Assembly (NCBI GenBank): GCA_001695645.1
Contig: LVZN01000016.1
Coordinates: 1-32,000, forward strand
Source of the DNA: Erysipelotrichaceae bacterium MTC7
GTDB taxonomy: Bacteria > Bacillota_I > Bacilli_A > Erysipelotrichales > Erysipelotrichaceae
DNA: 32,000 nt
Reading direction: 5' to 3'
Below are positions 1,488 to 16,239 of the stretch, one piece after another. The notes below the pieces were generated by a model. It was not told the DNA's origin, did not search any database, and saw only the letters and a program-made list of their open reading frames with translations. Each line of letters begins with the position of its first letter. Position 1 is the first letter of the stretch. Position numbers and translations under genes: made by a program.

Positions 1488-3104
1488 ATGTACACTGTTG
1501 TCATTGCGGATGATGAATACGAATTACGAAAAGCCTTAATTCATACCATCGATTGGAATGGTTTGGGGTTTGAAGTTGTAGGGGAAGCGGAGAATGGTGC
1601 AGTTGCACTTGAACTTGTTGAATTGTTGCAACCAGACTTATTAATTACAGATATTCAAATGCCTTTTATTTCGGGGATTGAGCTAGCTCGACAAGCAAGA
1701 AACATTCGACCGTACATGAACATCGTGTTTATTAGTGGATACGATGATTTTTCATATGCACAACAAGCGATTCAATACAACATTATCAGTTATCTATTAA
1801 AGCCACTTTCATCAAGTGAACTGGAAGCAGAATTGGTAAATATACGACATAAAATAGATGATCGATTTGCGCAACTAAGTGGATCTTTACAAGAAGATCA
1901 AAATGAGAAAATTCAAAGTTTAAAAGTTAATGAGTTTTTAATGTCACAATTGCTTGATCAGAATGTTGCATTTGAAAAACGTGATGATGAAGAAGCGATA
2001 AAAAAAGATGCGTTGGCCTTGAATATCATCGATACAATGAGTGTCGATAATTATTATCAAACGTTGGTGTTAACGTTTATGGATGATGCAGGACATAATC
2101 AAACAGAAGAAAAACATGTAAAGTTCGCCAATACCATTGTAAAAAAATACTTGTTGCATGGTGCCTTTTACTCGCGTAAGAAAATCATTGTGGTTGTTAG
2201 TGGAACAAAAAAAGAATTGGAACGATGCTTACCAATAATTGCCACAGAATGTGTGCAAAGCGCCAAGCGTATTTTAAAGTACGATTGTATGATGGGTGTG
2301 AGCCACACCTATAACAATTGGTTGCAACTACCTGTATCTTATGATGAAGCCCTTGCCGCAATTCGTTTTACAAAACTGGATGAGCCGGTGCAATATGCAT
2401 CAGATATCTCAAAAAGTACAAAACATGACTTTGATGTGATTGGTCAGTTTGTTGATCAACTTGAACATTTAATCAAAACGGAAACACATGAAAAAATCGA
2501 TGCGTTTTTGAACGAAGTATTTAAACAACCGGAGTTTCAATATAGCAACACGTTGGATATGTTTATGATTCATGTATTTGCCAATGTCAGTGAAGCGGTA
2601 ACTGCGATTGCTTCAAAAGAGGAAATAACGAAGTTTTTAAACCATGTATATGGGTGGAATATCGAAAGTGCGAGTGGGCATTTGGAGACCACAAAAGAGA
2701 AGATTAGAAAAATTGCACATGAAGCATTGGATATCATTGCCGGCCAAAGAAAAGAAACAAGTGAACTGTTGTGTCAAAACGCACTGGATTTAATTCGTAA
2801 TCAATATGCAGATGAAGATATGTCCATTGCTAAAGCAAGTCAATTGTTGCACGTGAGTTCGAGCTATCTAAGTGCCATTATTAAAAAGAATACCAACAGT
2901 ACCTTTGGTACGTTATTAACAGAAAAACGAATGGAAAGTGCAAAAGAACTGTTGCTTTCTACCTCAGCTAAAATCATGGAAATTGCCAACAAGTGTGGAT
3001 ACAGTGATACACATTACTTTAGTTATTGTGTGAAACGTTATTTTGGTGACTCACCAAATAAAATTCGTGAAAAACAAAGGGAAGAACAACATGAAAAGGC
3101 TTAG
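1488..3104 (+). CDS. two-component response regulator, REC domain + AraC-type HTH (YesN-like)
   Basis: N-terminal receiver (VVIADDE...LLITDIQMPFISGIEL...ISYLLKP) and C-terminal AraC HTH (SIAKASQLLHVSSSYLSAIIKK...IANKCGYSDTHYFSYCVKRYFGDSP). GGGGG SD upstream. Confidence 0.9.
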   Translation: MYTVVIADDEYELRKALIHTIDWNGLGFEVVGEAENGAVALELVELLQPDLLITDIQMPFISGIELARQARNIRPYMNIVFISGYDDFSYAQQAIQYNIISYLLKPLSSSELEAELVNIRHKIDDRFAQLSGSLQEDQNEKIQSLKVNEFLMSQLLDQNVAFEKRDDEEAIKKDALALNIIDTMSVDNYYQTLVLTFMDDAGHNQTEEKHVKFANTIVKKYLLHGAFYSRKKIIVVVSGTKKELERCLPIIATECVQSAKRILKYDCMMGVSHTYNNWLQLPVSYDEALAAIRFTKLDEPVQYASDISKSTKHDFDVIGQFVDQLEHLIKTETHEKIDAFLNEVFKQPEFQYSNTLDMFMIHVFANVSEAVTAIASKEEITKFLNHVYGWNIESASGHLETTKEKIRKIAHEALDIIAGQRKETSELLCQNALDLIRNQYADEDMSIAKASQLLHVSSSYLSAIIKKNTNSTFGTLLTEKRMESAKELLLSTSAKIMEIANKCGYSDTHYFSYCVKRYFGDSPNKIREKQREEQHEKA

Positions 3105-4833
3105 GTTTAAATGGTCGGGCATTAGTTTGCAAATGGTTATCACTGCTGTGATGATTGGACTTTCTTTTGCGATTATTGTGTCTTTATCAACGTTCTTTAT
3201 AAACGCACACATTGAGAATATTGAAGAGGGTGCTTTACGTAACTCGCAGCAAGTTGTGATGCAAACAGCAACCTCCATTGATCAAATCAAAGCGCAAATG
3301 GAATCACGTGTAAAAAAGGTGCGCAGTGAAATTGAACATATGCAAAACCAAGAGGAGATTCAGCACTATCTCAATATCTTCAATGATTTGGAAGATGATG
3401 TTGAAGGTGTCTTCATTTATGATGATAGTGGTGATGTTTTGCTGCATGGCGACAATGGGAAAAACTTGAAGACAAATATGGTTGAAAATCTGTCCTTTGA
3501 TGATGTTCTATTCGTGAATAGTCAAAACGGAATTGCCATCATGCGGCCCCATGTAGAAAGTATCTTTGAAAACTATTATCCATGGGTGGTAACCCTAGGT
3601 ATTCGTTTGGATAGTGATGCTATAGCAAATTCACGGTATTTGGTGATTGACTATAAGTTCTCAGGGATTTCTAGTTATGTTGATAATATCGGGGTTGGAC
3701 AACGCGGTTATTGTTTTGTCGTTGATGATAATAATAATATAGTATATCACCCGAAACAGAGAATGATTAACAGTGGTGTAGTAAAAGAAAATACGTCAAC
3801 AATTAGTAAGCTTGAAGGAAATGAAGGTATTGTGGATGGTACGATTTATGTAAAAGAAGCTGTTGATAATGGACAGTGGAATATTGTTGGTGTAAGTTAT
3901 GTAAATGAACTAATTGCAGAGCAAGTAAAAGATTTTCAACTTTATGTATCGATTGTTGCCTTTGTTTCAATTTTAATTTCCATCATCTTAAGTATGATTG
4001 TTGCAACTAAGGTTTCTGGTCCAATCAAACGTTTGGTTCACGCGATGAAAGACTTTGAAAGCAACGTCGATTCATATAGTTATGAACCACAAGGTGGAGT
4101 TGTGGAAATTAAAAGTTTATCAACATCATTCTCTAAAATGGTAATTATCATTCGAAACTTAATCAAGCAAGCAAAAGAAGAAGAAGTAACTTTAAGAAAA
4201 ACGGAAATGAAGGCATTGGAGTCACAAATCAATCCACACTTTTTATACAACACCTTGGATTCCATTCAATGGATGTGTGAACAAGGGAAAATGGATGAGG
4301 CTGTGGATATGGTTGGTGCTTTAGCTAAACTCTTTAGAATTAGTATCAATAAAGGAAAACAACTGATTCCCATTCGTGAAGAAATTGATCATGCCATGCA
4401 TTATTTGATAATTCAAAAATATCGATATCGTGATCAGTTTACGTATGATTTTGATATTGATGAGCAAGCACTTGATTACTACACAAACAAAATTACGATT
4501 CAACCGATTTTAGAAAATGCAATTTATCACGGGATTGATCGCATGATTGATGAAGGGCATATACAAGTAAACGTACGTTTGGAAGAGGAAACGATTGTCA
4601 TCGAAGTGATTGATAATGGACTGGGGATGAGTCAGGAACAAATTGTTTCGATTCTTAGTAAAGATCAACATGGAAAAAATGGAATCGGTTTAAAAAATGT
4701 AAACGATCGAATTAAAATCTATTTTGGTGATTCGTATGGTGTATATGTAGAAAGTGAATTGGATGAAGGAACGAAGGTAACCATTCGTTTCCCTGCCTTT
4801 AAAGGAGAGGAGGATGACTTGTTTGAAAAGTAA
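3091..4833 (+). CDS. sensor histidine kinase, YesM-like (two TM helices flanking a ~250-aa extracytoplasmic domain, HAMP, His_kinase, HATPase_c)
   Basis: ESQINPHFLYNTLDSI H-box region, and ENAIYHGI...DNGLGM...NGIGLKNV ATPase motifs. I prefer ATG 3091 (MKRLRFKW, GGGAAG SD) over the track start at 3043. It overlaps the regulator stop by 14 nt. Confidence 0.88.
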   Translation: MKRLRFKWSGISLQMVITAVMIGLSFAIIVSLSTFFINAHIENIEEGALRNSQQVVMQTATSIDQIKAQMESRVKKVRSEIEHMQNQEEIQHYLNIFNDLEDDVEGVFIYDDSGDVLLHGDNGKNLKTNMVENLSFDDVLFVNSQNGIAIMRPHVESIFENYYPWVVTLGIRLDSDAIANSRYLVIDYKFSGISSYVDNIGVGQRGYCFVVDDNNNIVYHPKQRMINSGVVKENTSTISKLEGNEGIVDGTIYVKEAVDNGQWNIVGVSYVNELIAEQVKDFQLYVSIVAFVSILISIILSMIVATKVSGPIKRLVHAMKDFESNVDSYSYEPQGGVVEIKSLSTSFSKMVIIIRNLIKQAKEEEVTLRKTEMKALESQINPHFLYNTLDSIQWMCEQGKMDEAVDMVGALAKLFRISINKGKQLIPIREEIDHAMHYLIIQKYRYRDQFTYDFDIDEQALDYYTNKITIQPILENAIYHGIDRMIDEGHIQVNVRLEEETIVIEVIDNGLGMSQEQIVSILSKDQHGKNGIGLKNVNDRIKIYFGDSYGVYVESELDEGTKVTIRFPAFKGEEDDLFEK

Positions 4834-5788
4834 GAAATTATGGCTTGTTATGGCTTGCTTTTCATTAGCGATAACATTGATGGCTTGTTCAGCTAGTGTC
4901 AGTCATGAACAGGTGTATATTGCAGTCATTCCCAAACAAGGGAAATCGAGTTTTTTCCGTGAAGTAGCCAGTGGTGTAAACACAGCAGCAACAGAATACG
5001 GTGTTCGTACGACGTTTGAAGGAGCACAAAATGAAGAAGATTATGAGACGCAAAATAGTCTAATTAAACGGGCGATTCATGCAAATGCGGATGCGATTGT
5101 GATTTCTGCTATCGATGAAAACAAATCCAACGAATTGTTGGAAGAAGCAGTGAGTAAAGGAATTGTTGTAATTACCATTGATAGTGGCGTTACTTATGAT
5201 GGAATCAGTCAACATATCGGGACAGATAACAAAGAAAGTGGTCGCATTGCAGCAAAAGAACTTTGTTCCATGGAACCTGGACAATTAAACATTGGTATCG
5301 TGAATTTTGAAAAGCATACAAAAAATGCAATTGAACGTGAAGCTGGTTTCATGGAGCAAATGGAAAAAGAATCATCGGTTCGTATTATGGATTCCGTAAG
5401 TACGGTATCCAATGCTTCAGAAGCAGCAGATGCAACCAAAGAACTGCTCGAACAAAATCCAACCATCAATGCGATTGTTGCTTTTAATGAGTACACATCA
5501 CTTGGTGTTGGTTACATGATTCGTGAAATGAATCGACAAGACGACATTCATGTTGTGGCTTTTGACAACAATGCAGAAAGCATCGGCATGATTGAAAACA
5601 ATGAAATTGATCGTTTGATTGTGCAAAACCCCTTTGCGATGGGATACCTAGCCATTGAATCTGCACTAAAAGAAATAGAAAAAAGAGATACGCTTACGCC
5701 AGAGCAGTTTACCGAAGTACTGGTTGTCAGTCGTAGCAATCTTTACGAATATGAAAATCAAAAGTTTGTTTTTCCTTTTGAAGACTAA
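4814..5788 (+). CDS. periplasmic-binding-protein-fold lipoprotein (RbsB/XylFII-like), probable ligand-sensing partner of the kinase
   Basis: Signal peptide with lipobox (LMAC, then SAS). Type-I sugar-binding fold motifs (IAVIPK...ADAIVISAID...VVITIDSG...VVAFDN). GGAGAGGAGG SD. Overlaps the kinase stop by 20 nt. Confidence 0.85.
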   Translation: MTCLKSKKLWLVMACFSLAITLMACSASVSHEQVYIAVIPKQGKSSFFREVASGVNTAATEYGVRTTFEGAQNEEDYETQNSLIKRAIHANADAIVISAIDENKSNELLEEAVSKGIVVITIDSGVTYDGISQHIGTDNKESGRIAAKELCSMEPGQLNIGIVNFEKHTKNAIEREAGFMEQMEKESSVRIMDSVSTVSNASEAADATKELLEQNPTINAIVAFNEYTSLGVGYMIREMNRQDDIHVVAFDNNAESIGMIENNEIDRLIVQNPFAMGYLAIESALKEIEKRDTLTPEQFTEVLVVSRSNLYEYENQKFVFPFED

Positions 5789-5910: not shown

Positions 5911-5926
5911 AAGCAAGCGCTTACAT
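5911..5926. promoter_or_regulatory. cre-like catabolite-responsive element (CcpA site)
   Basis: The minus strand of 5912..5926 reads ATGTAAGCGCTTGCT, matching every fixed position of the degenerate cre consensus WTGNAANCGNWNNCW. It sits just downstream of the -10. Confidence 0.55.
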
Positions 5927-6144: not shown

Positions 6145-7245
6145 ATGATTAAGAGATTAGCGAAAATGCTATTCGTCGCATTAATGGCAGTTAGTTTAGT
6201 TGCCTGTGGTGGCGGTGATAGCGGATCAGGTGGCGATGGAGAAGCTAGCGTTCACGTGTTCTATTATGATTATGGTGATACGTACATTTCAACAGTACGT
6301 ACTGCATTAGACAAAGAATTAGATGGAATGGATGTTAGTTACACTGACTACGATGCAGCTGGTAAACAACAAACACAAACGGAACAAGTCCAAACTGCAT
6401 TATCAAGTGGGGCAACGATGCTTGTTGTAAATATCGTTGAAACTGGTTCAGATGACGCAGCGATGACAATTATCAATGCCGCAAAAGAAAAAGATGTTCC
6501 AGTTGTATTCTTCAACCGTGAAGTATCTAACGAAGTAGTTAACTCATACGAGAAATGTTCATTTGTAGGTACTGATGCTAAAGAAGCAGGTATCATGCAA
6601 GGGGAAATGATTGGTGATGAATTGGTTGCAAACTTCGATACATATGACTTAAACAAAGATGGAAAAATTTCTTACGCAATGTTTAAAGGTCAAGAAGGAA
6701 ACAACGAAGCAATCTACCGTACACAATACGCTGTAGAAGATGCTGACAAAAAATTAGAAGCAGCTGGAAAAGCAAAATTAGAATACTACGATTCAGCAAA
6801 CTCTGACAAATACCAAGTTGACCAAGATGGAACATGGTCTGCAAAAGCAGCGCAAGACTACCTTGCAACTGCATTAGGTAAATACAACGACGGTAACAAC
6901 AACATGATTGAACTTGTTATCTGTAACAACGACGGTATGGCTGAAGGTGCAATTTCTGCATTACAAACAGCAGGTTACAACAAAAAAGGTGGAGACAAAA
7001 CAATTCCTGTATACGGAGTTGATGCTACTAAAGCAGCAGTTGATTTAATTGGACAAGGCGTAATGGCAGGAACAATTAAACAAGATGCTGAAGGTATGGC
7101 AAAAGTAATCGCATTAGCAGTTAAAAATGACGTAGCTGGTGATGACACATTCAAAGGAATCGATGATTCAGGTGTAGAAGGTGTTAAAGTTGACGACGGT
7201 GTTGCTAAAGCACGTATCCCTTACCAAATTTACACAGGTGAGTAA
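6145..7245 (+). CDS. mglB: galactose/glucose ABC transporter substrate-binding lipoprotein (MglB-like)
   Basis: Lipobox LVAC, then GGGDSGSGG linker. Collinear similarity to E. coli MglB as I recall it (VVFFNRE, GTDAKEAGIMQG, Ca-loop-like DLNKDGKIS, VICNNDGMA, IPVYGVDA). GAGGAGG SD. Confidence 0.9.
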   Translation: MIKRLAKMLFVALMAVSLVACGGGDSGSGGDGEASVHVFYYDYGDTYISTVRTALDKELDGMDVSYTDYDAAGKQQTQTEQVQTALSSGATMLVVNIVETGSDDAAMTIINAAKEKDVPVVFFNREVSNEVVNSYEKCSFVGTDAKEAGIMQGEMIGDELVANFDTYDLNKDGKISYAMFKGQEGNNEAIYRTQYAVEDADKKLEAAGKAKLEYYDSANSDKYQVDQDGTWSAKAAQDYLATALGKYNDGNNNMIELVICNNDGMAEGAISALQTAGYNKKGGDKTIPVYGVDATKAAVDLIGQGVMAGTIKQDAEGMAKVIALAVKNDVAGDDTFKGIDDSGVEGVKVDDGVAKARIPYQIYTGE

Positions 7246-7272
7246 GACGAAAGCAATTTAAACATACATTGT

Positions 7273-7293
7273 GAGGACGTCATTGACGTCCTC
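7273..7293 (+). promoter_or_regulatory. intercistronic GC-rich hairpin between mglB and mglA
   Basis: GAGGACGTCA / TGACGTCCTC perfect inverted repeat, with no following T-run. Confidence 0.55.
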
Positions 7294-7316
7294 AAATTGT
7301 AGATAGGAGAACTAAC

Positions 7317-8810
7317 ATGAATGATGTAATTTTAGAAATGAAAAATATCAATAAAGAGTTTCCTGGGGTGAAGGCTCTTGACAATGTCTCATTTTCAGTA
7401 AAAAAAGGAAGCGTTCATGCACTTATGGGGGAAAACGGAGCCGGAAAATCAACGTTAATGAAATGTTTGTTTGGGATTTATTCAAAAGATTCTGGAGAGA
7501 TTATTCTGGATGGACAAACCGTTGAATTTAAGGATTCAAAACACGCGCTTGAAGCGGGAGTTGCCATGGTGCACCAAGAACTAAACCAAGCGTTGAAGCA
7601 AAATGTTATGGATAATATTTGGCTTGGACGTTACCCAAAAATTGGTGGCATTTTCACATCAGAGAAAAAGATGTTGCATGATACCAAAGAGATTTTTGAA
7701 CAAATGGGTGTTGATGTTGATCCCAAGCGCATTATGAGTACGATGTCAGTATCACAACGACAAATGGTGGAAATTGCCAAGGCTGTTTCTTACAATTCGA
7801 AAATAATTGTGTTTGATGAACCTACATCTTCCTTAACTGATAAAGAAGTAGAACATTTATTCAAGATTATCAATATGTTACGAGACCAAGGGGTTGGAAT
7901 CGTGTACATTTCACACAAGATGGACGAAATTTTGAGAATCTCAGATGAAGTAACCATCATGCGTGATGGACAATACATTGCCACAAAGGATGCAAAGGAT
8001 TTAACCATGAACGAGATTATTCGTTTGATGGTTGGTCGTGAACTGACAAATTTATATCCTGAAAAGACAAATACACCTGGTGAGATGGTACTTGATGTAA
8101 AAAATCTAACGGGTATGTATTCACATATCGAAGATGTCTCATTCCAAGTGCACCGCGGTGAAATTCTTGGAATCGCTGGACTTGATGGTTCAGGAAGAAC
8201 GGAAGTGTTGGAAACTGTATTTGGGATAGCAACAAAAAAATCTGGGGAGATTATACTTGATGGAAAAGTAATCAAGAACAATAGTTCACTTGAATCCATT
8301 AAAAATGGATTTGCCCTTGCAACGGAAGAAAGAAGAGCAACGGGAATCTTTGGAATTCTTTCCGTATTGGAAAATACTGTTATTTCCAATCTAAAAAAAT
8401 ACAAGAAAATGGGTTTACTAAACGACCATGAAATGCGTAAAGATACCGAGTGGTCCATTGATTCCATGCGAATCAAAACACCAAGTGCGGACACGCAAAT
8501 TCGTTCACTTTCTGGAGGTAACCAACAAAAAGTAATTCTTGGACGTTGGTTATTGACCGATCCAGAAGTGCTCCTGTTGGATGAACCAACAAGGGGAATT
8601 GATGTTGGAGCCAAGTATGAAATTTATCAATTGATTATTGATTTAGCTGCAAAAGGTAAATCGGTAGTTATGGTAAGTTCAGAAATGCCGGAACTACTTG
8701 GTGTATGTGACCGGATTATGGTGATGTCAAATGGTCGTGTGGCTGGTTCTTTACCAGTCAAACAAGCTAGTCAAGAAAAAATCATGGAACTAGCTGCGAA
8801 GTATTTATAG
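7317..8810 (+). CDS. mglA: sugar ABC transporter ATP-binding protein with duplicated NBD (MglA-like)
   Basis: Walker [10 protein letters not shown], Walker B IIVFDEPT, a degenerate second P-loop GLDGSGRTE, and signature [24 protein letters not shown]. Confidence 0.93.
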
Positions 8811-8820
8811 GAGGAAGTAT

Positions 8821-9888
8821 ATGTTTTTCAAAAATATAAAATCTCGATTCAATGAAATCAAAGAGATGGATACAAAAGATCGAAATCGTTTTATTAAGGA
8901 AACGTTAATTAACAACTCGCTTTTGATCTTTATGCTAATTGCAATTATTTATATTCAAATTCAAAGACCACAATTCTTAAGTCGTGAGTCAATTATCAAT
9001 ATTGTTTCATTATCGGCATCGGCGATGCCTTTAGCCTTAGGGGTTGCTGGAGCAATCATCCTAACTGGAACCGATTTATCCGCAGGACGCATTGTAGGAT
9101 TAACCGCATGTATTTCTGCTTCATTGTTGCAAGCAGTGGATTATTCAAACAAAATGTTTCCAGACTTGCCAGCAATTCCAATTATCATTGTCTTCTTATT
9201 GGTTATTGCACTAGGAGCACTGATTGGATTTGTGAATGGTTTCTGTGTGTCTAAATTCTCATTGCACCCATTCATTGTGACACTAGCTACACAATTAATG
9301 GTGTATGGAGTCATTCTTATGTACCTTATGAATGGTGACAACAACGGCCAGTCCATATCCGGGTTATCAAGTGGATTTACCGAGCTGACCAAAGGTAGTT
9401 TATTCAAAATTGGTGGAACACCGGTACCCAATTATGTATTGATGGCCATTGTTTTAACTGGTGTGATGTGGGTTGTTTGGAATAAAACAGCGTTTGGAAA
9501 GAACATGTTCGCTGTTGGGTCAAACCCAGAAGCTGCAAACGTTTCTGGAGTCAATGTTGCCTTAACGATTACACTAGTATTTACCTTAGCTGGAGCTTTG
9601 TATGCATTTTCAGGATTTATTGAAGCCGCACGTATTGGATCAAACTCTGCCAATACAGGATTGAACTATGAACTAGATGCGATTGCTGCTTGTGTTATTG
9701 GTGGTGTATCATTCGTTGGAGGGATTGGGAAAATCCGCGGAGTGGTACTTGGAGTTGTCCTCTTAAAACTGATTTTCGTTGGGTTGAACTTCTTAAGTGT
9801 AAGTGTAAATATGATTTACATTATCAAAGGGTTAATTATCTTAGTTGCTTGTGCAATTGATATGCGTAAATATCTCGTACGAAAATAG
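8821..9888 (+). CDS. mglC: sugar ABC transporter permease (MglC/RbsC family)
   Basis: About 10 hydrophobic helices, a TGTDLSAGR motif and an ELDAIAACVIGG motif typical of BPD_transp_2 sugar permeases. AGGAGG SD. Confidence 0.9.
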   Translation: MFFKNIKSRFNEIKEMDTKDRNRFIKETLINNSLLIFMLIAIIYIQIQRPQFLSRESIINIVSLSASAMPLALGVAGAIILTGTDLSAGRIVGLTACISASLLQAVDYSNKMFPDLPAIPIIIVFLLVIALGALIGFVNGFCVSKFSLHPFIVTLATQLMVYGVILMYLMNGDNNGQSISGLSSGFTELTKGSLFKIGGTPVPNYVLMAIVLTGVMWVVWNKTAFGKNMFAVGSNPEAANVSGVNVALTITLVFTLAGALYAFSGFIEAARIGSNSANTGLNYELDAIAACVIGGVSFVGGIGKIRGVVLGVVLLKLIFVGLNFLSVSVNMIYIIKGLIILVACAIDMRKYLVRK

Positions 9889-9896
9889 GAGGAACT

Positions 9897-10064
9897 ATGG
9901 AAAAAACAATCATTGAAACAACAGTAGAAATTAGTGAAGATAAACCACAGGTTACAAAAATTCAAGGGTTATATGATCGTGTGAACATTCCTGTCAAAGT
10001 GCTTGATCGTGTGATCTTTGGTGGCATTGGTCTAATCATTATGTTGATTCTTATTTCCTTATAG
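9897..10064 (+). CDS. unannotated 55-aa small membrane protein
   Basis: Below the ORF-track length cutoff. ATG at 9897 sits 5 nt after AGGAGG (9888..9893). Translation: MEKTIIETTVEISEDKPQVTKIQGLYDRVNIPVKVLDRVIFGGIGLIIMLILISL, an acidic N-terminus plus one C-terminal TM helix. It exactly fills the mglC-to-next-gene gap. Confidence 0.6.
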   Translation: MEKTIIETTVEISEDKPQVTKIQGLYDRVNIPVKVLDRVIFGGIGLIIMLILISL

Positions 10065-10079
10065 AAAGTTGAGCTATAT

Positions 10080-10469
10080 ATGGAAAAAGTAATTTATCAA
10101 AAACAACCAGAGATAGACTACGACAGTCTGGTTATGGTATTTCATCAAGGTGGAAAACGTTACTTCTCACATTCATTTATTTATCATGGACGTGATGGAA
10201 AGTACTTACAATTCTTTTATAAAGATCCACTTCCTGAAGGTGATTTTCTGAAAGGATGGAATTATTTGGATGATCATTCCTTTCGTATCGTGATGGTTCC
10301 TGAACCTTCGCAAGCTGTGGCAATTGATGACTTTATTGCCGCACATAATCCAATCAGTCAAATCAATGCAATCGAAATTATTGAAATTGGTGGCTTTGAT
10401 GAAATTGATGCGCTGTTGAAAGATCCAAGTATTGCCAGTCAAGAAATCATTTTCTTCGGTCGCAAATAA
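10080..10469 (+). CDS. conserved 129-aa protein of unknown function (copy 1), last gene of the mgl-like operon
   Basis: Complete ORF with no signal peptide or TM helix. Gapless alignment to the ORF at 13662..14051 gives 77/129 identical residues by hand count. No known family recognised. Confidence 0.8.
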   Translation: MEKVIYQKQPEIDYDSLVMVFHQGGKRYFSHSFIYHGRDGKYLQFFYKDPLPEGDFLKGWNYLDDHSFRIVMVPEPSQAVAIDDFIAAHNPISQINAIEIIEIGGFDEIDALLKDPSIASQEIIFFGRK

Positions 10470-10629
10470 GTTAATAATAAAGATGGTGACATCTTATTAT
10501 ACTGGTGACATGGACAAGTGTTGCCAACAATCTTTACTTGTTTAGCGTTCAAGTTTCCTCTATCTTCATGGATAATCTCGACGGAATGCTAAACGAATAC
10601 ACACACACTTACATCTCTCTGTAAGTAAA

Positions 10630-10662
10630 GTTAGGATGCACTTGATGCATCCTAACTTTTTT
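10630..10662 (+). terminator. rho-independent terminator
   Basis: GTTAGGATGCA (10630..10640), loop CTTGA, TGCATCCTAAC (10646..10656), T6 (10657..10662). Confidence 0.9.
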
Positions 10663-10741: not shown

Positions 10742-12223
10742 ATGATAATGAATAAATTTACAAACTATGGCTTTGATCAAGAAATCTTAACAGCAATTGA
10801 TAAACTTGGATATGTACAGCCTACCAAGGTACAAGAAGAACTGTTTCCTGTAATTCTTAGCCAACAAGACGCCATTGTGAAATCGCAAACAGGTAGTGGG
10901 AAAACCGCTGCTTTTGCCTTGCCAATTTTACAACAGTTGGATTGGAACATCCGTACACCACAAGTTTTGGTGCTTACACCAACACGAGAACTTGCTTTAC
11001 AAATCAAAGATGACATGTTTCATTTGGGTAGATATAAGCGTATGAACGTACAAGCAGTATTTGGAAAGATGTCATTTGAAGGACAACGCAAACAACTAGC
11101 ACAACGTACACATGTTGTAGTAGGAACACCAGGAAGAGTATTGGATCACTTAATCCAACATACGCTTGATGTCAGTGAAGTTGCCTATTTGGTGATTGAT
11201 GAAGCTGATGAAATGTTCACGATGGGATTTGAAGAAGAAATGCAAAAAATTCTAGAACGTTTACCAAAACAAAGACAAACGATTTTATTGTCGGCAACTT
11301 TGGATGAACGTATTGAAACCTTGTGTCAACAGCAAATGCATCAGCCTGCTTTTATTGATGTTATTTCAAAGCGTAATGTCTTTGATGTGATTGAACAACA
11401 AGCATACGAAGCTGTGGGTGATAAGGATCAATTGTTGGAAGATGTCTTAATGAAGGAAAATCCTGATAGTGCCATTATCTTTTGCAATACGCAAGAGATG
11501 GTCAACCATGTGGCTAATGAAGTGATTGGTTATCCAGAAGCAACAAGGAAACTACATGGTGGGATGGATCAAAAAGATCGAATTCAAGTAATCACAGATT
11601 TTAAACTGGGGTACTTTCGCTATTTGGTGGCAACAGATGTTGCTGCTCGTGGTCTTGATATTGAAAAAGTAGAACTTGTCATAAACTATGACGTTCCAAG
11701 TGATGTACAAACCTATGTTCATCGTATTGGACGAACAGGTCGTAAAGATCAACAAGGAAAAGCAATTACCTTAGTTACACCAAACGAAATGGGAATGCTG
11801 CACAAACTTGAAAGTGAGTTAGCAATTACCCTATCGATGCAACCAACCATTACGGAAGGCATGCGTAAAACATATGAACAAGCATTTGTAAGTAAACGTA
11901 GCCAAAACCGTACATTGGTTAAAGAAAAAAGTTTAGCATTTAAAGAGGATATTATGAAGTTGCATATCAACGCAGGTAAGAAAACCAAGATGCGTCCGGG
12001 TGATGTGGTTGGTGCGATTACATCCATTGAAGGGATACTTGCAACAGATATTGGTGTTATTTCCATTGTAGATGTTTCGACGTTTGTTGAAATCTTAAAT
12101 GGAAAAGGACAGCTTGTCTTTGATGCGCTTCAAGATTTACCCATCAAAGGCCGCATCCGCCGTATCAACAAAGCTAATGTTTCGCAATATGAAATTGATT
12201 ACTACAACCAAGAAAACAAATAA
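10742..12223 (+). CDS. dbpA: DEAD-box ATP-dependent RNA helicase with C-terminal DbpA/YxiN-type RNA-binding domain
   Basis: Motifs SQTGSGKT, PTRELA, DEAD (VIDEADEM), SAT and HRIGRTGR. The C-terminus (MKLHINAGKKTKMRPGDVVGAI...VEILNGKG...INKA) resembles the B. subtilis YxiN RNA-binding domain as I recall it. The start could be 10742 or 10748. Confidence 0.9.
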   Translation: MIMNKFTNYGFDQEILTAIDKLGYVQPTKVQEELFPVILSQQDAIVKSQTGSGKTAAFALPILQQLDWNIRTPQVLVLTPTRELALQIKDDMFHLGRYKRMNVQAVFGKMSFEGQRKQLAQRTHVVVGTPGRVLDHLIQHTLDVSEVAYLVIDEADEMFTMGFEEEMQKILERLPKQRQTILLSATLDERIETLCQQQMHQPAFIDVISKRNVFDVIEQQAYEAVGDKDQLLEDVLMKENPDSAIIFCNTQEMVNHVANEVIGYPEATRKLHGGMDQKDRIQVITDFKLGYFRYLVATDVAARGLDIEKVELVINYDVPSDVQTYVHRIGRTGRKDQQGKAITLVTPNEMGMLHKLESELAITLSMQPTITEGMRKTYEQAFVSKRSQNRTLVKEKSLAFKEDIMKLHINAGKKTKMRPGDVVGAITSIEGILATDIGVISIVDVSTFVEILNGKGQLVFDALQDLPIKGRIRRINKANVSQYEIDYYNQENK

Positions 12224-12227
12224 TAGT

Positions 12228-12263
12228 AAAGCATCGATTATATGTGTAGTCGATGCTTTTCTT
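12228..12263 (+). terminator. rho-independent terminator
   Basis: AAAGCATCGA / TCGATGCTTT arms with a 12-nt loop, followed by TTTTCTT. Confidence 0.8.
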
Positions 12264-12289: not shown

Positions 12290-12317
12290 TTGTCTTTTCA
12301 AGAATAACTATTATAAT
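12290..12317 (+). promoter_or_regulatory. candidate sigma-A promoter of the second binding-protein gene
   Basis: TTGTCT (12290..12295), 16-nt spacer, TATAAT (12312..12317). Confidence 0.45.
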
Positions 12318-12415: not shown

Positions 12416-13513
12416 ATGAAATTAAAAAACATTCTAAGTTTATGGATCGTTGGTGTCATGTGTATAGGGCTTGTTGGATGTAAAAGTGAAGAGAAAGAAA
12501 CCACCAAGGAAGCCAGTGTACATGTATTCTATTATGATTATAACGATGTGTATGTATCAACTGTGCGTGAACATCTAGAAACGGATTTCCATAAGAAGCA
12601 GGTTGCTTTTACAGCTTATGATGCTACAGGAGAACAACAAGTTCAACTACAACAAGTAGATCGAGCAATTGAAGATGGCGCTAGTGTGCTTGTTGTGAAT
12701 ATTGTGGAAACCGGAAGTGACGATGCGGCATTAGCTATTATCGAAAAAGCGAAAGCAAAACAATTACCAGTTATTTTCTTCAATCGTGAAGTCTCAGATG
12801 CTGTTGTTGCTGCATATGAAAACTGCGCATTTATTGGTACAGATGCAGCAGAAGCAGGAATCATGCAAGGACAAATGATCGGGGATCACTTATTAGAAAA
12901 CTTTGAGCAATTTGATTTGAATCATGATGGGCAAATTTCATATACTTTGTTTAAAGGTCAAGAGGGAAATGAAGAGGCCATCTACCGGACAAAATATGCA
13001 GTAGAGGAAGCCGATAAAAAGTTACATGCAGCAAATAAAAAACCATTGCTGTATTACGATTCATTAAACAGCAATAAATATCAAGTAGACCAAGATGGAA
13101 CATGGTCAAAAGCAGCTGCAAAGTCGTATTTACAAGAAGCATTGCTTTCTTACAATGAAAGCAATGGTAAGATGATAGAACTTGTGATTTGTAATAACGA
13201 TGACATGGCTTCTGGTGCGATTGAGGCCTTGCAAGAAGTTGGTTACAATCGTATTGGAGAAAATCGCAACATTCCAGTATATGGTGTAGATGCATCAAAT
13301 ACTGCAATAAAACTTATTGATGAAGGTATTATGGCTGGAACCATTAAACAAGATGCTGCAGGAATGGCAAAGTTGATAAGTTTTGCGACTAGCAATAGCA
13401 CAAAGGGAAATACTGCATTTCAAGCAATCGATACTGTTGGTATCAAAGATTTAACCATCGATAAAAAAGTTGCAAAAGCACGCATCCCATATGAAATGTT
13501 TTTTGGAAAATAA
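12416..13513 (+). CDS. second MglB-like substrate-binding lipoprotein, no adjacent permease or ATPase
   Basis: Lipobox LVGC. Long blocks identical to the 6145..7245 product (EASVHVFYYDY, LVVNIVETGSDDAA, FFNREVS, EAGIMQG, FKGQEGN, KYQVDQDGTWS, MIELVICNND, IPVYGVDA, MAGTIKQDA, VAKARIPY). AAGGGGAAG SD. Confidence 0.9.
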   Translation: MKLKNILSLWIVGVMCIGLVGCKSEEKETTKEASVHVFYYDYNDVYVSTVREHLETDFHKKQVAFTAYDATGEQQVQLQQVDRAIEDGASVLVVNIVETGSDDAALAIIEKAKAKQLPVIFFNREVSDAVVAAYENCAFIGTDAAEAGIMQGQMIGDHLLENFEQFDLNHDGQISYTLFKGQEGNEEAIYRTKYAVEEADKKLHAANKKPLLYYDSLNSNKYQVDQDGTWSKAAAKSYLQEALLSYNESNGKMIELVICNNDDMASGAIEALQEVGYNRIGENRNIPVYGVDASNTAIKLIDEGIMAGTIKQDAAGMAKLISFATSNSTKGNTAFQAIDTVGIKDLTIDKKVAKARIPYEMFFGK

Positions 13514-13519
13514 TACAAT

Positions 13520-13551
13520 AAAAAATGGTAGCTGTATTTGCTACTTTTTTT
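13520..13551 (+). terminator. weak terminator-like hairpin
   Basis: GTAGC / GCTAC 5-bp stem with a 7-nt loop, flanked by an A-run and T7. Probably leaky. Confidence 0.45.
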
Positions 13552-13661
13552 CGTGACTGAAAGACTATGCTAGAAATATGAGCCAAGCAAGGGACAAACG
13601 TGTAAAAGTTCGTTAGAATGAAGGTGTACAATTACGTATGTAAGGAAGGGAAATTGAAAGT

Positions 13662-14051
13662 ATGAAAAAAACGATATACCAAAAACAACCAGATTTGAAT
13701 TACAAAAGTTTAGTGATGGTATACTTCGATGGAGAAAATCGTTACATTGCCCACTCGTTTATTCATAACGGAAGGGAAGGAAAGTATTTATCTATCTTGT
13801 ATAAAGATCCATTACCAACTGGAGATTTTATTGCTGGCTGGAATTATTTGGATGACAATTCATTTTCGATGGTCATGATTCCAGAAAAAAACCAAGAGAT
13901 GGCTGTTGAAGATTTCTATGCTGCTTGGAATCCAGAAATGCTGGCACAAGGAATTGAAATTATTGAAGTTAAAGGGTTTGATGAAGTCAATCGTTTAATG
14001 ACAGATCCAGAAATCAACGAACAAGAATTTGTGTTCTTTGGACGCAAATAA
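13662..14051 (+). CDS. conserved 129-aa protein of unknown function (copy 2)
   Basis: Same length as the 10080..10469 product, with 77/129 identity and no gaps. AAGGAAGGGAA SD. No signal peptide or TM helix. Confidence 0.8.
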   Translation: MKKTIYQKQPDLNYKSLVMVYFDGENRYIAHSFIHNGREGKYLSILYKDPLPTGDFIAGWNYLDDNSFSMVMIPEKNQEMAVEDFYAAWNPEMLAQGIEIIEVKGFDEVNRLMTDPEINEQEFVFFGRK

Positions 14052-14114
14052 CAACAAGAAGTTACATGAGGGGTATGCATTCCTTTCATATGAACGTGCT
14101 ATTTGAATTCTAAG

Positions 14115-14146
14115 CCAAGTATGTTTGTACTTGGTTTTCTATTTTG
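14115..14146 (+). terminator. rho-independent terminator
   Basis: CCAAGTA (14115..14121), loop TGTTTG, TACTTGG (14128..14134), then TTTTCTATTTT. Confidence 0.8.
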
Positions 14147-14184: not shown

Positions 14185-15243
14185 ATGAATAATGAATTTT
14201 TATTAATAGCTTTACTAGCACTGTTAATTGTGTTGCTTCTTGCAGTACTTTTTTTATTGTTGAAGCAAAACAAACACGATGACCATGAGGAACTTGATCG
14301 CATGCAAAAACAATTGCTCGATTTTCAATTGGCCATTAGCCAAAGTGTACGTAACGATATGAATATGTTAAATGAAAACACAACTGATAAATTAACTAAG
14401 ATGCAACAAAGTTTGAATCAACAAGTGAACGTCTCTTTTGAATCAACAGGAAAAGTATTCCGTGAAGTTATGACACAAATCGGTAAAATCGATAAAACCC
14501 AGGAACAATTAACACTGCTATCCCATGACATTTCCAGCTTGCATAGCATTCTCAATGACAAGAAAACACGTGGGATGTATGGGGAAGTAGAACTATACAA
14601 TATCTTAGAAAATGCATTTGGACTGGATTACACAAAGTATGACAAACAGTATAAATTGAGTAACAACCATATTGTGGATGCTATTATCTATGGAAATGAT
14701 GCGTTAGGTAAAATTCCTGTAGATTCTAAATTTCCTTTGGAAAACTTTAATCGATTGATGGATCCAGAGTTGTTGCAAGCACAGAAACAAGTTGTGTATA
14801 ACCAATTCAAGAACGATGTTAAAAAGCACATTGATGCCATTCATACAAAGTATTTGATTAAAGATGAAACAAGTGAATTTGCATATATGTTTATTCCAGC
14901 GGAAGCGATCTTTGCTTATATAACTGCAAATATGGATGAAGTTTTAACCTATGCTTATCAAAAACATGTATACCTTGTTTCGCCGACGACATTGATGGCA
15001 TACATTACAGCAATTAAAGCTTTGTATTTGGGGCAACAAAAAAATGAAAAAATGCAAGAGATACAAACAGAACTGAATAAACTTGCTGTTGAGTTTGATC
15101 GCTTTCATGATCGCTATCAAAGTGTCGCGACGGACATGCAACGCACGCAAAAAGACATGCAAACTGTTTTAATTACAGCAGAGAAAATTGAAAAGCGTTT
15201 TCGTAAAATTGAAGCAGTTGAATTAGAGGAACAAGAACACTAA
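14185..15243 (+). CDS. rmuC: DNA recombination protein RmuC
   Basis: N-terminal TM helix, coiled-coil region and a C-terminal RmuC-type domain (GEVELYNILE...VDAIIY...IPVDSKFPLENF...FAYMFIPAEAIF...YLVSPTTLMAYI). TGgTATACT extended -10 at 14160..14168; AGGTGA SD. Confidence 0.88.
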   Translation: MNNEFLLIALLALLIVLLLAVLFLLLKQNKHDDHEELDRMQKQLLDFQLAISQSVRNDMNMLNENTTDKLTKMQQSLNQQVNVSFESTGKVFREVMTQIGKIDKTQEQLTLLSHDISSLHSILNDKKTRGMYGEVELYNILENAFGLDYTKYDKQYKLSNNHIVDAIIYGNDALGKIPVDSKFPLENFNRLMDPELLQAQKQVVYNQFKNDVKKHIDAIHTKYLIKDETSEFAYMFIPAEAIFAYITANMDEVLTYAYQKHVYLVSPTTLMAYITAIKALYLGQQKNEKMQEIQTELNKLAVEFDRFHDRYQSVATDMQRTQKDMQTVLITAEKIEKRFRKIEAVELEEQEH

Positions 15244-15768: not shown

Positions 15769-15780
15769 TGGGAGGTGACT

Positions 15781-16239
15781 ATGCCAAATAAGGATAGAGC
15801 AATACGATTTAGGGAATTAATGTATATGATGCGACGACTCAAACCACACGATGAGTGTTCGAAAGTTAAACACCAAGATATGATGTTTATGAACGGAATT
15901 ATGCGTGCTGGAAAAGGTGAACCGATTAAAGTCAGTCAAATCGCTAAAATGTTTCGTTTTAGTGCTCCTGCGGCAAGTCAAGTCGTACGTCGACTTGAAG
16001 AACGTGGATTTGTCGAACGAATCATTCGTGATGATGATCGACGTAGTGTCTACATTCAAGTGACGGATGATACAAAAAGGGAACTACGTAGAATTGAAGA
16101 TCAAATGAATCAACGGTTGGACCACATCCTTGATTATTTGGGTGATCATGATACGGAAGAATTGATGCGCATTATGGAAAAAGTCGTTCAATATATGGAT
16201 GAAGAAGAGAAAGGAACTTTACATGATAAAAACGTTTAA
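15781..16239 (+). CDS. MarR-family transcriptional regulator
   Basis: Winged-HTH pattern (VSQIAKMFRFSAPAASQVVRRLEERGFVERIIRDDDRRSVYIQVT). I prefer ATG 15781, 5 nt after GGAGG (15771..15775), over the track GTG at 15775. Confidence 0.85.
   Translation: MPNKDRAIRFRELMYMMRRLKPHDECSKVKHQDMMFMNGIMRAGKGEPIKVSQIAKMFRFSAPAASQVVRRLEERGFVERIIRDDDRRSVYIQVTDDTKRELRRIEDQMNQRLDHILDYLGDHDTEELMRIMEKVVQYMDEEEKGTLHDKNV

Follow-up and report, generated by a model that had tools for sequence, protein, structure and literature searches.

Autonomous transcription units in a second mglB-p129 gene pair downstream of the mgl operon of Erysipelotrichaceae bacterium MTC7

In Erysipelotrichaceae bacterium MTC7 an mgl-type sugar transport operon is followed by a second gene for an MglB-type binding protein (mglB2) and, directly after it, a second gene for a 129-residue protein (p129_2). 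The first-pass annotation took the retention of exactly these two genes as a sign of functional, possibly physical, coupling between an extracellular binding protein and a cytoplasmic protein, a topology that it found puzzling. The locus raises the question of whether the two genes form a retained module or are neighbours with separate histories. The analysis covered the window, which is the whole stretch of 32 000 nucleotides from contig LVZN01000016.1, and extended to related genomes. The reading that we favour, and consider probable, is that the second pair represents two autonomous units and not a co-selected module, with MglB2 an orphan binding protein and p129 an accessory of sugar uptake. 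Without a check of distribution, a duplication of this type could be misread as a new cross-membrane signalling topology.

The two copies and their transcription signals

The operon is preceded on the forward strand by a sensor module (1488 to 5788), which comprises an AraC-type response regulator (1488-3104), a YesM-like histidine kinase with the Pfam domains His_kinase (PF06580), HATPase_c and dCache (3043-4833) and a sensor-type binding protein of 324 aa with a Peripla_BP_4 domain (4814-5788); the same order ahead of mglBAC was found in Breznakia and Anaerorhabdus. The transporter operon, on the same strand, opens with mglB1 (6145 to 7245), which encodes an MglB-type lipoprotein of 366 aa (Peripla_BP_4, 2.9e-40), and continues with mglA (7317-8810, a double-NBD ATPase), mglC (8821-9888, the permease), orf55 (9897 to 10064, a small single-pass membrane protein) and, 15 nt further, the terminal gene p129_1 (10080 to 10469). 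The gene for the DEAD-box RNA helicase DbpA (10742 to 12223; DEAD, Helicase_C and DbpA domains) lies between the two copies, as annotated previously, and is followed on the forward strand by mglB2 (12416 to 13513, 365 aa) and p129_2 (13662 to 14051, 129 aa) and then by rmuC (14185-15243). When each operon protein was compared with the window by tblastn, a second copy came back for MglB and p129 only; mglA, mglC and orf55 were found once each, confirming that the ATPase, the permease and the 55-aa ORF are not duplicated. No structured RNAs or tRNAs were found in the window, and the literature on strain MTC7 was confined to incidental mentions.

MglB1 is 95% identical to its Breznakia orthologue (dN/dS 0.057) and the mglA and mglC products are 94-97% identical to theirs, orf55 is kept after mglC in both Breznakia (65%) and Anaerorhabdus (48 aa), and DbpA is 71% identical to the Breznakia protein. 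Recent transfer of mglBAC was considered as the cause of the 95% identity of MglB1 between genera; the dS of mglB and mglA does lie below that of the flanks, but values of 0.64-1.36 point mainly to strong constraint or codon bias.

The second binding protein shares with MglB1 the long identical blocks noted at first pass (215/365 identical residues, 59%, E=7e-163), and its residues 38-321 match PF13407 (Peripla_BP_4, E=3.5e-37), a type I periplasmic-binding-protein fold. Both MglB1 and MglB2 are Peripla_BP_4 proteins with lipoprotein signals read from the sequence (LVAC and LVGC respectively), and for both the top family matches are MglB/GGBP. The NCBIfam MglB equivalog model NF011924, with a cutoff of 420 bits, was matched at 191.1 bits by MglB1 and at 189.4 bits by MglB2; MglB is the best-matching family, yet by these scores neither protein is an equivalog of enterobacterial MglB. 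The resemblance of DLNHDGQIS in MglB2 to a calcium loop was borne out by its alignment with the E. coli GGBP loop DLNKDGQIQ, although the EF-hand matches at this position were weak and under the Pfam cutoff. Together with this loop, MglB2 keeps the conserved sugar-contact residues as they occur in MglB1, which suggests that it may still bind a galactose- or glucose-like sugar.

The second p129 gene aligns with the first without gaps at 77/129 identical residues (60%, E=1e-61), exactly the figure previously counted by hand. The p129_1 product shares 72-74% identity with the correspondingly placed Breznakia orthologue, and the p129_2 product is 83% identical to its counterpart at the syntenic site. 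With dN/dS at 0.17 for p129_1 and 0.11 for p129_2, both copies are under purifying selection and functional. No signal peptide or transmembrane segment is evident in the p129 sequence and MglB2 carries a lipoprotein signal; the two products are predicted to be separated by the membrane.

Terminators were located on the forward strand after each of these units. The mgl-orf55-p129_1 operon ends in an intrinsic terminator at 10627 to 10659 (14-bp stem followed by a U-run; -20.9 kcal/mol, z=-5.9) and dbpA in another at 12228 to 12261, with UUUUC directly after it (-17.1 kcal/mol, z=-5.5). The weak hairpin reported 3' of mglB2 proved to be real, lying at 13521 to 13551 with a core stem at 13527-13545 (-9.4 kcal/mol, z=-3.9), an A-tract before it and a U-tract after it. 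The terminator 3' of p129_2, ahead of rmuC, is at 14112 to 14137 (11-bp stem; -12.0 kcal/mol, z=-4.9). Flanked by dbpA and p129_2, mglB2 is bracketed by terminators, has no cognate ATPase or permease gene adjoining it and is monocistronic; a promoter-like site upstream of it (TTGTCT-16-TATAAT, 12290-12317) is weak evidence.

Upstream of p129_2 is a conserved leader of 82 nt (13580 to 13661, forward strand), which contains a ribosome-binding site (AAGGAAGGGA) and the GGGACA-17-TAGAAT sequence proposed at first pass as a possible promoter (13591-13619). Taken alone this sequence is no more frequent than chance predicts (18 sites, with 18.3 expected), but it gains weight because an xxGACA-17-TAnAAT arrangement is also kept in the Breznakia p129_2 leader. 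The leader is identical to that of Breznakia at 55/84 positions, against 25-39% in a forced alignment further upstream, and at 84/84 positions between Breznakia strains with different upstream genes. A comparison of the mglB1, mglB2 and p129_2 upstream regions for a shared motif gave nothing above chance 9-10-mers, and among these regions a cre-like site was found only before mglB1. With dbpA, mglB2 and p129_2 each having its own terminator, and p129_2 a conserved leader, mglB2 and p129_2 are therefore neighbouring autonomous transcription units and not a retained module; the partial transcriptional uncoupling suggested earlier is stronger than was proposed.

Distribution and descent of the two genes

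The lineage was sampled by MTC7 and a small number of Breznakia assemblies. In all three Breznakia assemblies examined, one of them Breznakia blatticola, the p129_2 orthologue precedes rmuC and has no binding-protein gene beside it. The gene order in Breznakia is dbpA-p129_2-rmuC-marR-ABC, except that one assembly (L002) carries a TetR gene and two ABC-exporter genes upstream of p129_2, which marks the site between dbpA and p129_2 as prone to rearrangement. The Breznakia strain L001 is without an 18.6-kb block carrying mglBAC-orf55-p129_1 at that locus, yet has kept p129_2; the flanks of the missing block are 97-98% identical to those in L004. The mgl operon of Anaerorhabdus has orf48 and is without p129. 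No MglB2 orthologue was found among 5.8 billion proteins, the best non-self match being 61% identical. These data suggest that p129_2 arose as a paralogue of p129_1 before MTC7 and Breznakia diverged. It occupies a conserved site upstream of rmuC, is equipped with a conserved promoter region and a terminator of its own, and is retained in relatives with no binding-protein gene beside it. MglB2 is best read as an orphan, fast-evolving binding protein, seen in MTC7 only, which may deliver its sugar to the sole MglAC translocator or to a sensor.

A couple of extracellular binding protein and cytoplasmic p129, whether functional, physical or signalling, that is kept by selection now appears very improbable. 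mglB2 and p129_2 are indeed adjacent and co-oriented in MTC7, and p129 is linked to binding-protein-dependent CUT2 transporters in several lineages; but the two families are distributed independently in relatives, p129_2 standing in Breznakia without a binding-protein gene and MglB2 lacking an orthologue. Among the contexts examined p129 directly follows a binding-protein gene only at MTC7 p129_2, and in the conserved operon cases the preceding gene is a permease, small membrane ORF or esterase gene, never one for a binding protein. MglB-type binding proteins gave 3110 matches, thousands of them without p129, against 32 p129 clusters. The terminator and the separate conserved promoter region between the two genes, and the opposite membrane sides of their products, also count against coupling.

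Phylogenies of the two families were compared, using neighbour-joining (NJ) trees with bootstrap and a maximum likelihood (ML) topology test for MglB. The MglB and p129 trees do not obviously agree on timing. p129_1 and p129_2 each group with the Breznakia orthologue (95% and 98.5% bootstrap respectively) and the two groups together form one clade (97.5%). For MglB, the NJ tree placed MglB1 with the Breznakia, Anaerorhabdus and P0043 proteins in a 100% clade from which MglB2 was excluded, and the ML test preferred MglB2 outside the MglB1/Breznakia/Anaerorhabdus clade (RELL 0.575). The terminal branch of MglB2 measures 0.64 substitutions per site, ~4x longer than that of MglB1. Dating of the duplications by dS was rejected, as dS was saturated (1.3-2.5). 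MglB2 probably diverged from the MglB1 lineage no later than the radiation giving rise to the Breznakia and Anaerorhabdus orthologues, and it has evolved ~4x faster than MglB1.

Pure coincidence is unlikely to have set a binding-protein paralogue immediately before a p129 paralogue in the order and orientation of the operon. The pair may instead stem from one segmental duplication of mglB-mglA-mglC-orf55-p129 in the MTC7/Breznakia ancestor, after which mglA-mglC-orf55 were deleted, p129_2 gained a promoter, Breznakia later lost mglB2 and the orphaned MglB2 sped up, so that the adjacency would be a remnant of decay with no selection on the pair. We hold this history to be possible, if doubtful. 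It accounts for gene order and strand being the same as in the operon, and for paralogue identity (59% and 60%) and dN (0.34 and 0.33) being nearly equal in the two pairs, as a single duplication predicts; deletion at the site is in keeping with the rearrangement seen in L002. The topology that it requires, which pairs MglB2 with the MTC7/Breznakia MglB1 as sisters, is disfavoured and not rejected (RELL 0.086, delta lnL -3.7), and the great length of the MglB2 branch is compatible with relaxed constraint or a new function and may have led to long-branch misplacement. However, ML and NJ both set MglB2 outside the clade that contains Anaerorhabdus, and of 20 lineage-specific sites MglB2 agrees with MTC7/Breznakia at 2 and with the ancestral Anaerorhabdus/P0043 state at 6. 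Measured against the MTC7-Breznakia split, the paralogue split is ~7 times as deep for MglB (from ML branch lengths) and ~2 times as deep for p129 (from identities). No remnant of mglA, mglC or orf55 was found in the 148-bp spacer between mglB2 and p129_2, and the sequences flanking the two copies are not similar to each other, scores being at the level of shuffled sequences in both cases. Under the favoured reading of two autonomous units, MglB2 is a clean case of an orphan, rapidly diverging binding protein, the ligand specificity of which may have shifted.

The p129 family and its gene neighbourhoods

A word-indexed search returned 8 clusters of p129 sequences and a profile search 32 clusters among 1.84 billion representatives, with full-length members at E=1e-61 to 1e-17. 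The family is thus very small, and its members are single-domain proteins of ~125-136 aa, acidic and predicted to be cytoplasmic, mostly from Erysipelotrichaceae of gut, oral and rumen origin. They share the motif LYKDxLP-x(5-7)-GWNYLD(D/E)NS and a later (V/I)(E/D)DF helix, both of which are present in the two copies in the window. Across 23 sequences W60, N61, L63, D64, D84 and F85 are invariant, and Y47 and S67 nearly so. Neither Pfam, NCBIfam nor the PDB gave a match by sequence or profile, and none of the 23 members matched a Pfam family at E<=10. A place among anti-phage defence or phage families was not supported, PADLOC giving 0 matches and PHROG scattered singletons at E>=0.012.

An earlier structural model built from 7 sequences was poor (pLDDT 65) and its fold matches were meaningless. 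The AF2 model from 23 sequences (pLDDT 89.6, pTM 0.85) shows an alpha/beta fold, for which Foldseek returned nothing below E=0.07 (TM <=0.31 in the PDB and <=0.42 in BFVD) and no PDB match with E<0.25. p129 is an uncharacterised protein, compact and amenable to experiment, whose confidently predicted fold is unmatched in these two collections.

The gene recurs as the last of a CUT2 sugar-ABC cluster in four lineages (MTC7/Breznakia, L026, L035/L036/L039 and L044), 1-18 nt from the preceding gene. A functional link thus survives from the first-pass annotation in a weaker version, to the transporter cluster and not to the binding protein; as the link is to the cytoplasmic side of the transporter operon, the topological puzzle disappears. 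Linkage of p129 to an MglB-type binding-protein gene is not obligate. At least 12 other contexts have no transporter, p129 being free-standing in most lineages, and a metagenome scan with a 9-sequence alignment mostly returned known contexts again.

Gene context suggests that p129 assists sugar uptake from the cytoplasmic side. It could do so as a small protein that binds or converts the sugar, analogous and not homologous to RbsD/FucU/RhaM, or alternatively could modulate the transporter ATPase. That p129 is unrelated to sugar transport, a drifting small housekeeping, stress or immunity-type protein that reached the end of operons by read-through hitch-hiking, we regard as unlikely. Most of its contexts are non-transport (neighbours include HflX-M18 peptidase, NusG, MnmE, FeoB, MetK/Exo_endo_phos and a flavodiiron protein) and many copies are monocistronic between opposite-strand genes. 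Against this, the four lineages with a tightly spaced terminal p129 include clusters (L026 and L035) whose binding proteins are only 28-31% identical to MglB1/2, and we estimate, from genome content in general, that a given gene would directly follow a CUT2 cluster with a probability well under 1%. Further neighbours elsewhere are sugar-related, namely a GT4 glycosyltransferase, Mga/PTS-Man, SIS-domain proteins, an aldolase and an aldo-keto reductase, and the defence and phage libraries gave p129 no place.

A bolder proposal is that p129 represents a new fold and family and a dedicated cytoplasmic partner of CUT2 importers, which either gates uptake by docking on the MglA-type ATPase or processes the incoming sugar, with p129_2 freed in MTC7/Breznakia as a constitutive regulator. 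This we consider decidedly unlikely; if true, it would define a new class of ABC-importer accessory factor. The CUT2 transporter class is regarded as fully described, and should p129 prove to be a sugar-uptake enzyme or regulator, a component would be added to it. Breznakia blatticola DSM 28867, a deposited culture-collection strain, offers a test bed, and natural variants without the operon copy of p129 exist.

Comparison with known systems

The closest known counterpart of MglB1 and MglB2 is MglB of E. coli and Salmonella (GGBP; PDB 2GBP, 1GLG, 2FVY), the D-galactose/D-glucose-binding protein of the CUT2 importer MglBAC. Both proteins share with it the Peripla_BP_4 fold, an end-to-end alignment (E=4e-43), an EF-hand-like calcium loop (DLN-DG-I-) and a Glu matching E205. 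In the literature numbering of GGBP, D14, N91, R158, W183, N211 and D236 are conserved in the two proteins, and the contacts changed are F16 to Y, H152 to N, D154 to E and N256 to Q, the set being identical in both. Unlike GGBP they are lipoproteins of the Gram-positive kind and contain ~25 additional residues as an insert, and MglB2 has no ATPase or permease gene adjoining it.

Small cytoplasmic proteins of ~100-140 aa, such as the pyranase-mutarotases RbsD/FucU and RhaM, occur in sugar-transport and catabolic operons, and structures of RbsD, FucU and RhaM are contained in the PDB. p129 resembles them in size, cytoplasmic location, place in sugar-ABC operons and optional presence, and its aromatic and Asp/Asn set (W60, N61, D64, D84, F85; Y47, S67) is of the kind found in sugar sites. 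It differs from RbsD/FucU in having no match to PF05025 or another Pfam family, and from all three in having no structural match in the PDB; the likeness would be at most one of functional analogy.

Extra or orphan binding proteins are known that feed a sensor or share one ABC translocator, as HisJ and ArgT share HisQMP. In Ruminiclostridium cellulolyticum CuaD is a second binding protein beside a two-component system (PMC10384115; reviewed in PMC8050422). MglB2 resembles such cases as a stand-alone paralogue of the operon's binding protein, encoded close to one translocator and one three-component sensor (the 324-aa binding protein, histidine kinase and response regulator); it differs from HisJ/ArgT and CuaD in being confined to one genome and unusually divergent. 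Three-component sugar sensors that depend on a binding protein, of the XylFII-LytS-YesN type, have been reviewed (PMC8050422), and the genes upstream of mglB1 are similar to these, since a Peripla_BP_4 protein of 324 aa is encoded there separately from the His_kinase(PF06580)/dCache kinase and the AraC-type response regulator. MglB2 and p129 lie outside this sensor module in all genomes examined, except that in L044 p129 ends such a cluster.

Gene layout and the two copies

The window encodes proteins of Erysipelotrichaceae bacterium MTC7, with A4S06_10120 matching p129_2 and A4S06_10115 matching MglB2 at 100% identity, and all the genes described here are on the + strand. Genes for an AraC-type response regulator (1488-3104), a YesM-like kinase (3043-4833) and a sensor-type binding protein of 324 aa (4814-5788) precede mglB1 (6145-7245), mglA (7317-8810), mglC (8821-9888), orf55 (9897-10064) and p129_1 (10080-10469). 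These are followed by dbpA (10742-12223), mglB2 (12416-13513), p129_2 (13662-14051), rmuC (14185-15243), marR (15775-16239) and ABC exporter genes (from 16199). As called, the kinase ORF has a TTG start and a 62-nt overlap with the 3' end of the response-regulator gene (3043-3104); an in-frame Met at ~3091 (MKRLRFKW...) is the more plausible start. Gene overlaps within the sensor cluster were also seen in Breznakia and Anaerorhabdus.

The second MglB-like gene described in the first-pass annotation is real, MglB1 and MglB2 being 59% identical across 365 residues. The 129-aa proteins align without gaps at 77/129 identical residues, and the duplication is limited to these two genes, as no other second copies were found inside the window. 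Both MglB proteins have a lipobox and a GGBP-like Ca loop, and they are identical at residues aligned to the sugar-contact positions of Escherichia coli GGBP (residue numbering from the literature). MglB2 is a predicted exported lipoprotein whose GGBP-like binding site is intact.

The gene orf55 comes straight after that for the CUT2 permease and encodes a small membrane protein with 65% identity to its Breznakia counterpart (locus L010, 9815-9982). An Anaerorhabdus homologue of 48 aa (L024, 13743-13889) has the motif YDRVNIxxKxLDRIIFG in common with orf55, with a single TM helix behind the motif. No family match for orf55 was found in Pfam or NCBIfam and it occurs independently of p129; it is a real, conserved protein. 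Compared with Breznakia (6145-8810 versus L010 6064-8725), dS was 0.64 for mglB1 and 0.88 for mglA versus 1.0-1.7 for flanking genes, and the two proteins are 94-95% identical versus 65-89% for their neighbours. Pronounced codon bias or constraint could explain this pattern, as could a later exchange between the lineages that involved the transporter core.

Distribution in Breznakia and transcription signals

Breznakia are the nearest relatives of MTC7 (orthologues 71-97% identical), and both p129 paralogues are present in B. blatticola DSM 28867. Breznakia p129_1 (72-74% identical) is the last gene of the RR-HK-PBP-mglBAC-orf55 operon, as in MTC7 (L010 and L004), while p129_2 (83% identical) has dbpA on one side and rmuC-marR-ABC on the other (L009, L003 and L001). 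No binding-protein gene was found beside p129_2 at these last three loci, where the spacer is only 165 bp. L002 comes from a further Breznakia assembly and has a TetR gene plus two ABC-exporter genes between dbpA and p129_2; p129_2 therefore has three different upstream neighbours (dbpA, mglB2 or TetR/ABC-exporter genes) in three genomes. The insertion at L002 (1830-5998), with its genes on the opposite strand, reaches almost to where the conserved p129_2 leader begins. The occupation of this intergenic site by mglB2 in MTC7 and by the TetR/ABC insertion in L002 suggests a rearrangement hot spot.

No MglB2 orthologue was detected in a search of 5.8 billion proteins, where the top matches other than MglB2 itself had 59-61% identity. 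The proposal that binding protein and 129-aa protein had been retained together through functional or physical coupling is not supported by these data: the two families are independently distributed in related genomes, the outcome named beforehand as counting against it. Nothing demands contact between MglB2 and p129_2, and the topology puzzle raised by an extracellular protein paired with a cytoplasmic one dissolves. Non-conservation of the pair is strengthened by L001 (GCA_029892945.1), which lacks an 18.6-kb block at the locus corresponding to L004, running from the response regulator via mglBAC-orf55-p129_1 to a PTS/GH1 cluster, with both flanks 97-98% identical, and which still carries an identical p129_2. 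The block holds RR-HK-PBP-mglBAC-orf55-p129_1, a 269-aa gene, cellobiose-type PTS genes, a PRD regulator, GH1 and EamA, and its neighbours are galM and the gene of an ECF-like sigma factor (L001 4106-4654 versus L004 1378-20018). This sugar-uptake island is a natural presence/absence variant among Breznakia strains.

The hairpin 3' of mglB2 and the GGGACA-17-TAGAAT site both exist, and the suggested transcriptional uncoupling of the second pair is upheld. Terminators were predicted after p129_1 (-20.9 kcal/mol), dbpA (-17.1), mglB2 (-9.4) and p129_2 (-12.0), all with z below -3.9, which points to mglB2 and p129_2 as separate monocistronic units. The 82 nt 5' of the p129_2 ATG are conserved (55/84 identical between MTC7 and Breznakia; 84/84 among Breznakia strains with differing upstream genes). 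Beyond the 5' end of this block the similarity stops. The block holds xxGACA-17-TAnAAT and a ribosome-binding site; p129_2 is probably expressed from these signals of its own. A cre-like palindrome, AGCAAGCGCTTACAT, matching WTGNAANCGNWNNCW, is located in the mglB1 promoter region (5912-5926, match on the - strand), and none was found upstream of mglB2 or p129_2. The window contains two cre-like matches versus 0.8 expected, and the evidence is positional only.

Origin of the second pair

In the p129 tree p129_1 and p129_2 each cluster with their Breznakia orthologue (95% and 98.5%) and all four form a clade (97.5%), which places the p129 duplication in the MTC7/Breznakia stem lineage. The MglB tree differs: MglB1, Breznakia MglB (96%), Anaerorhabdus MglB (80%) and the sequence P0043 (82%) fall in one clade (100%), with MglB2 outside it. 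The orthologous Anaerorhabdus operon has a small membrane ORF, orf48, that is clearly an orf55 homologue, and no p129. Five placements of MglB2 were compared by maximum likelihood (BLOSUM62-derived rate matrix, gamma rates, RELL bootstrap). Placement outside this clade was preferred (RELL 0.575), and the co-duplication topology was disfavoured yet not rejected (delta lnL -3.7, RELL 0.086). Of 20 sites splitting MTC7/Breznakia from Anaerorhabdus/P0043, MglB2 agrees with MTC7/Breznakia at 2 and with Anaerorhabdus/P0043 at 6, and it differs from both at 12. The terminal branch leading to MglB2 measures 0.64 substitutions per site, and the path from its node to MglB1 0.17. The paralogue split is deeper than the MTC7-Breznakia split by a factor of ~7 for MglB (ML branch lengths) and ~2 for p129 (calculated from pairwise identities).

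Separate origins of mglB2 and p129_2 are given slightly less than an even chance. A single duplication, leaving a decayed duplicate operon from which Breznakia later lost mglB2, is rather unlikely given an MglB tree that puts MglB2 outside a clade including Anaerorhabdus MglB; yet gene order and orientation match the operon, both paralogue pairs are nearly equal in identity and dN, and juxtaposition by chance is improbable a priori. Whichever the origin, the mglB2-p129_2 adjacency is not maintained as a unit today.

The p129 family and its possible role

In about 18-20 distinct p129 contexts surveyed, the gene is the last of a CUT2 sugar-ABC cluster in four lineages, 1-18 nt from the preceding gene: MTC7/Breznakia (RR-HK-PBP-mglBAC-orf55-p129_1), L026 (galK, galM, LacI-SBP-ATPase-permease-orf110-p129), L035/L036/L039 (SBP-ATPase-permease-p129) and L044 (permease-PBP-HK-RR-two esterases-p129). 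At only 28-31% identity to MglB1/2, the L026 and L035 SBPs are distant enough to place these operons in different CUT2 subfamilies. The L026 orf110 product, in the position of orf55, is a different membrane protein of 110 aa with two CxxC pairs and two TM segments. At L021 and L014 a CUT2 operon lies 2-5 kb upstream. From general genome content, the chance of a given gene lying directly downstream of a CUT2 cluster is estimated at well under 1%; with four lineages of about 20, the association is real, is with the transporter operon and is facultative. Outside the MTC7 second copy, no surveyed context has p129 directly after an SBP gene. The earlier functional link thus survives as a weaker, operon-level link to CUT2 importers and fails for the binding protein. 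Conserved p129 genes are, judging by their tight spacing after importer genes, often co-transcribed with them.

Other neighbourhoods include p129 before a Mga/PRD regulator and PTS-Man genes (L027), HflX-M18 aminopeptidase-p129-histidine phosphatase or SIS protein (many Solobacterium contigs), NusG-p129-AI-2E transporter, SIS-p129-AI-2E and several unrelated ones. A GT4 glycosyltransferase gene directly follows p129 at L011 and L030/L031, with a gap of 3 nt in two p129 lineages (L011 346-1758; L030 2360-3747; L031 1514-2901), and is followed by an LPG_synthase_TM protein in L011 and by signal peptidase, GTPase and RNase HII in L030. This second recurrent, tightly coupled context may bear on function (NDP-sugar or glycolipid metabolism).

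The p129 family is very small. A word-indexed search gave 8 clusters, and 1.84 billion representatives, scanned exhaustively with a HMMER profile, gave 32 at 50% identity, all members of the latter being ~105-156 aa without fusions. Genome matches came from Breznakia, Solobacterium, Bulleidia, unnamed Erysipelotrichaceae MAGs and one MAG labelled Lachnospiraceae. Both MTC7 copies are under purifying selection (dN/dS 0.17 for p129_1, 0.11 for p129_2) and are acidic (pI 4.7-4.9) and hydrophilic, without Cys, signal peptide or TM segments, which marks them as predicted cytoplasmic proteins. W60, N61, L63, D64, D84 and F85 are invariant, and G37, Y47, L51, P52 and S67 nearly so. No homology was found in profile libraries or a PDB sequence search. 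An AlphaFold model from 23 sequences is confidently alpha/beta (pLDDT 89.6, pTM 0.85), an N-terminal beta-meander preceding beta-alpha units, and the conserved residues map to the beta4-alpha1 loop and helices alpha1 and alpha2. Foldseek found no neighbours of the model in the PDB (best E=0.25, TM at most 0.31) or BFVD (best E=0.075, TM 0.42); judged against these, a new fold is a possibility.

The significance lies in the orphan p129 family rather than in the duplication. p129 would serve sugar uptake from within the cytoplasm, perhaps as a small sugar-binding or sugar-converting accessory with a role analogous to that of RbsD/FucU/RhaM, or alternatively as a modulator of the transporter ATPase. 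The invariant aromatic and Asp/Asn residues suit a sugar site, and a sugar-related role of this kind, put forward tentatively, is rated as less likely than not. MglB2 would most likely supply the one MglAC translocator, or a sensor, with a related sugar, like the extra SBPs that feed a shared translocator or sensor in other systems (PMC10384115, PMC8050422). A sugar ABC operon with an orphan SBP paralogue, here with an uncharacterized accessory gene, is an arrangement already known in kind.
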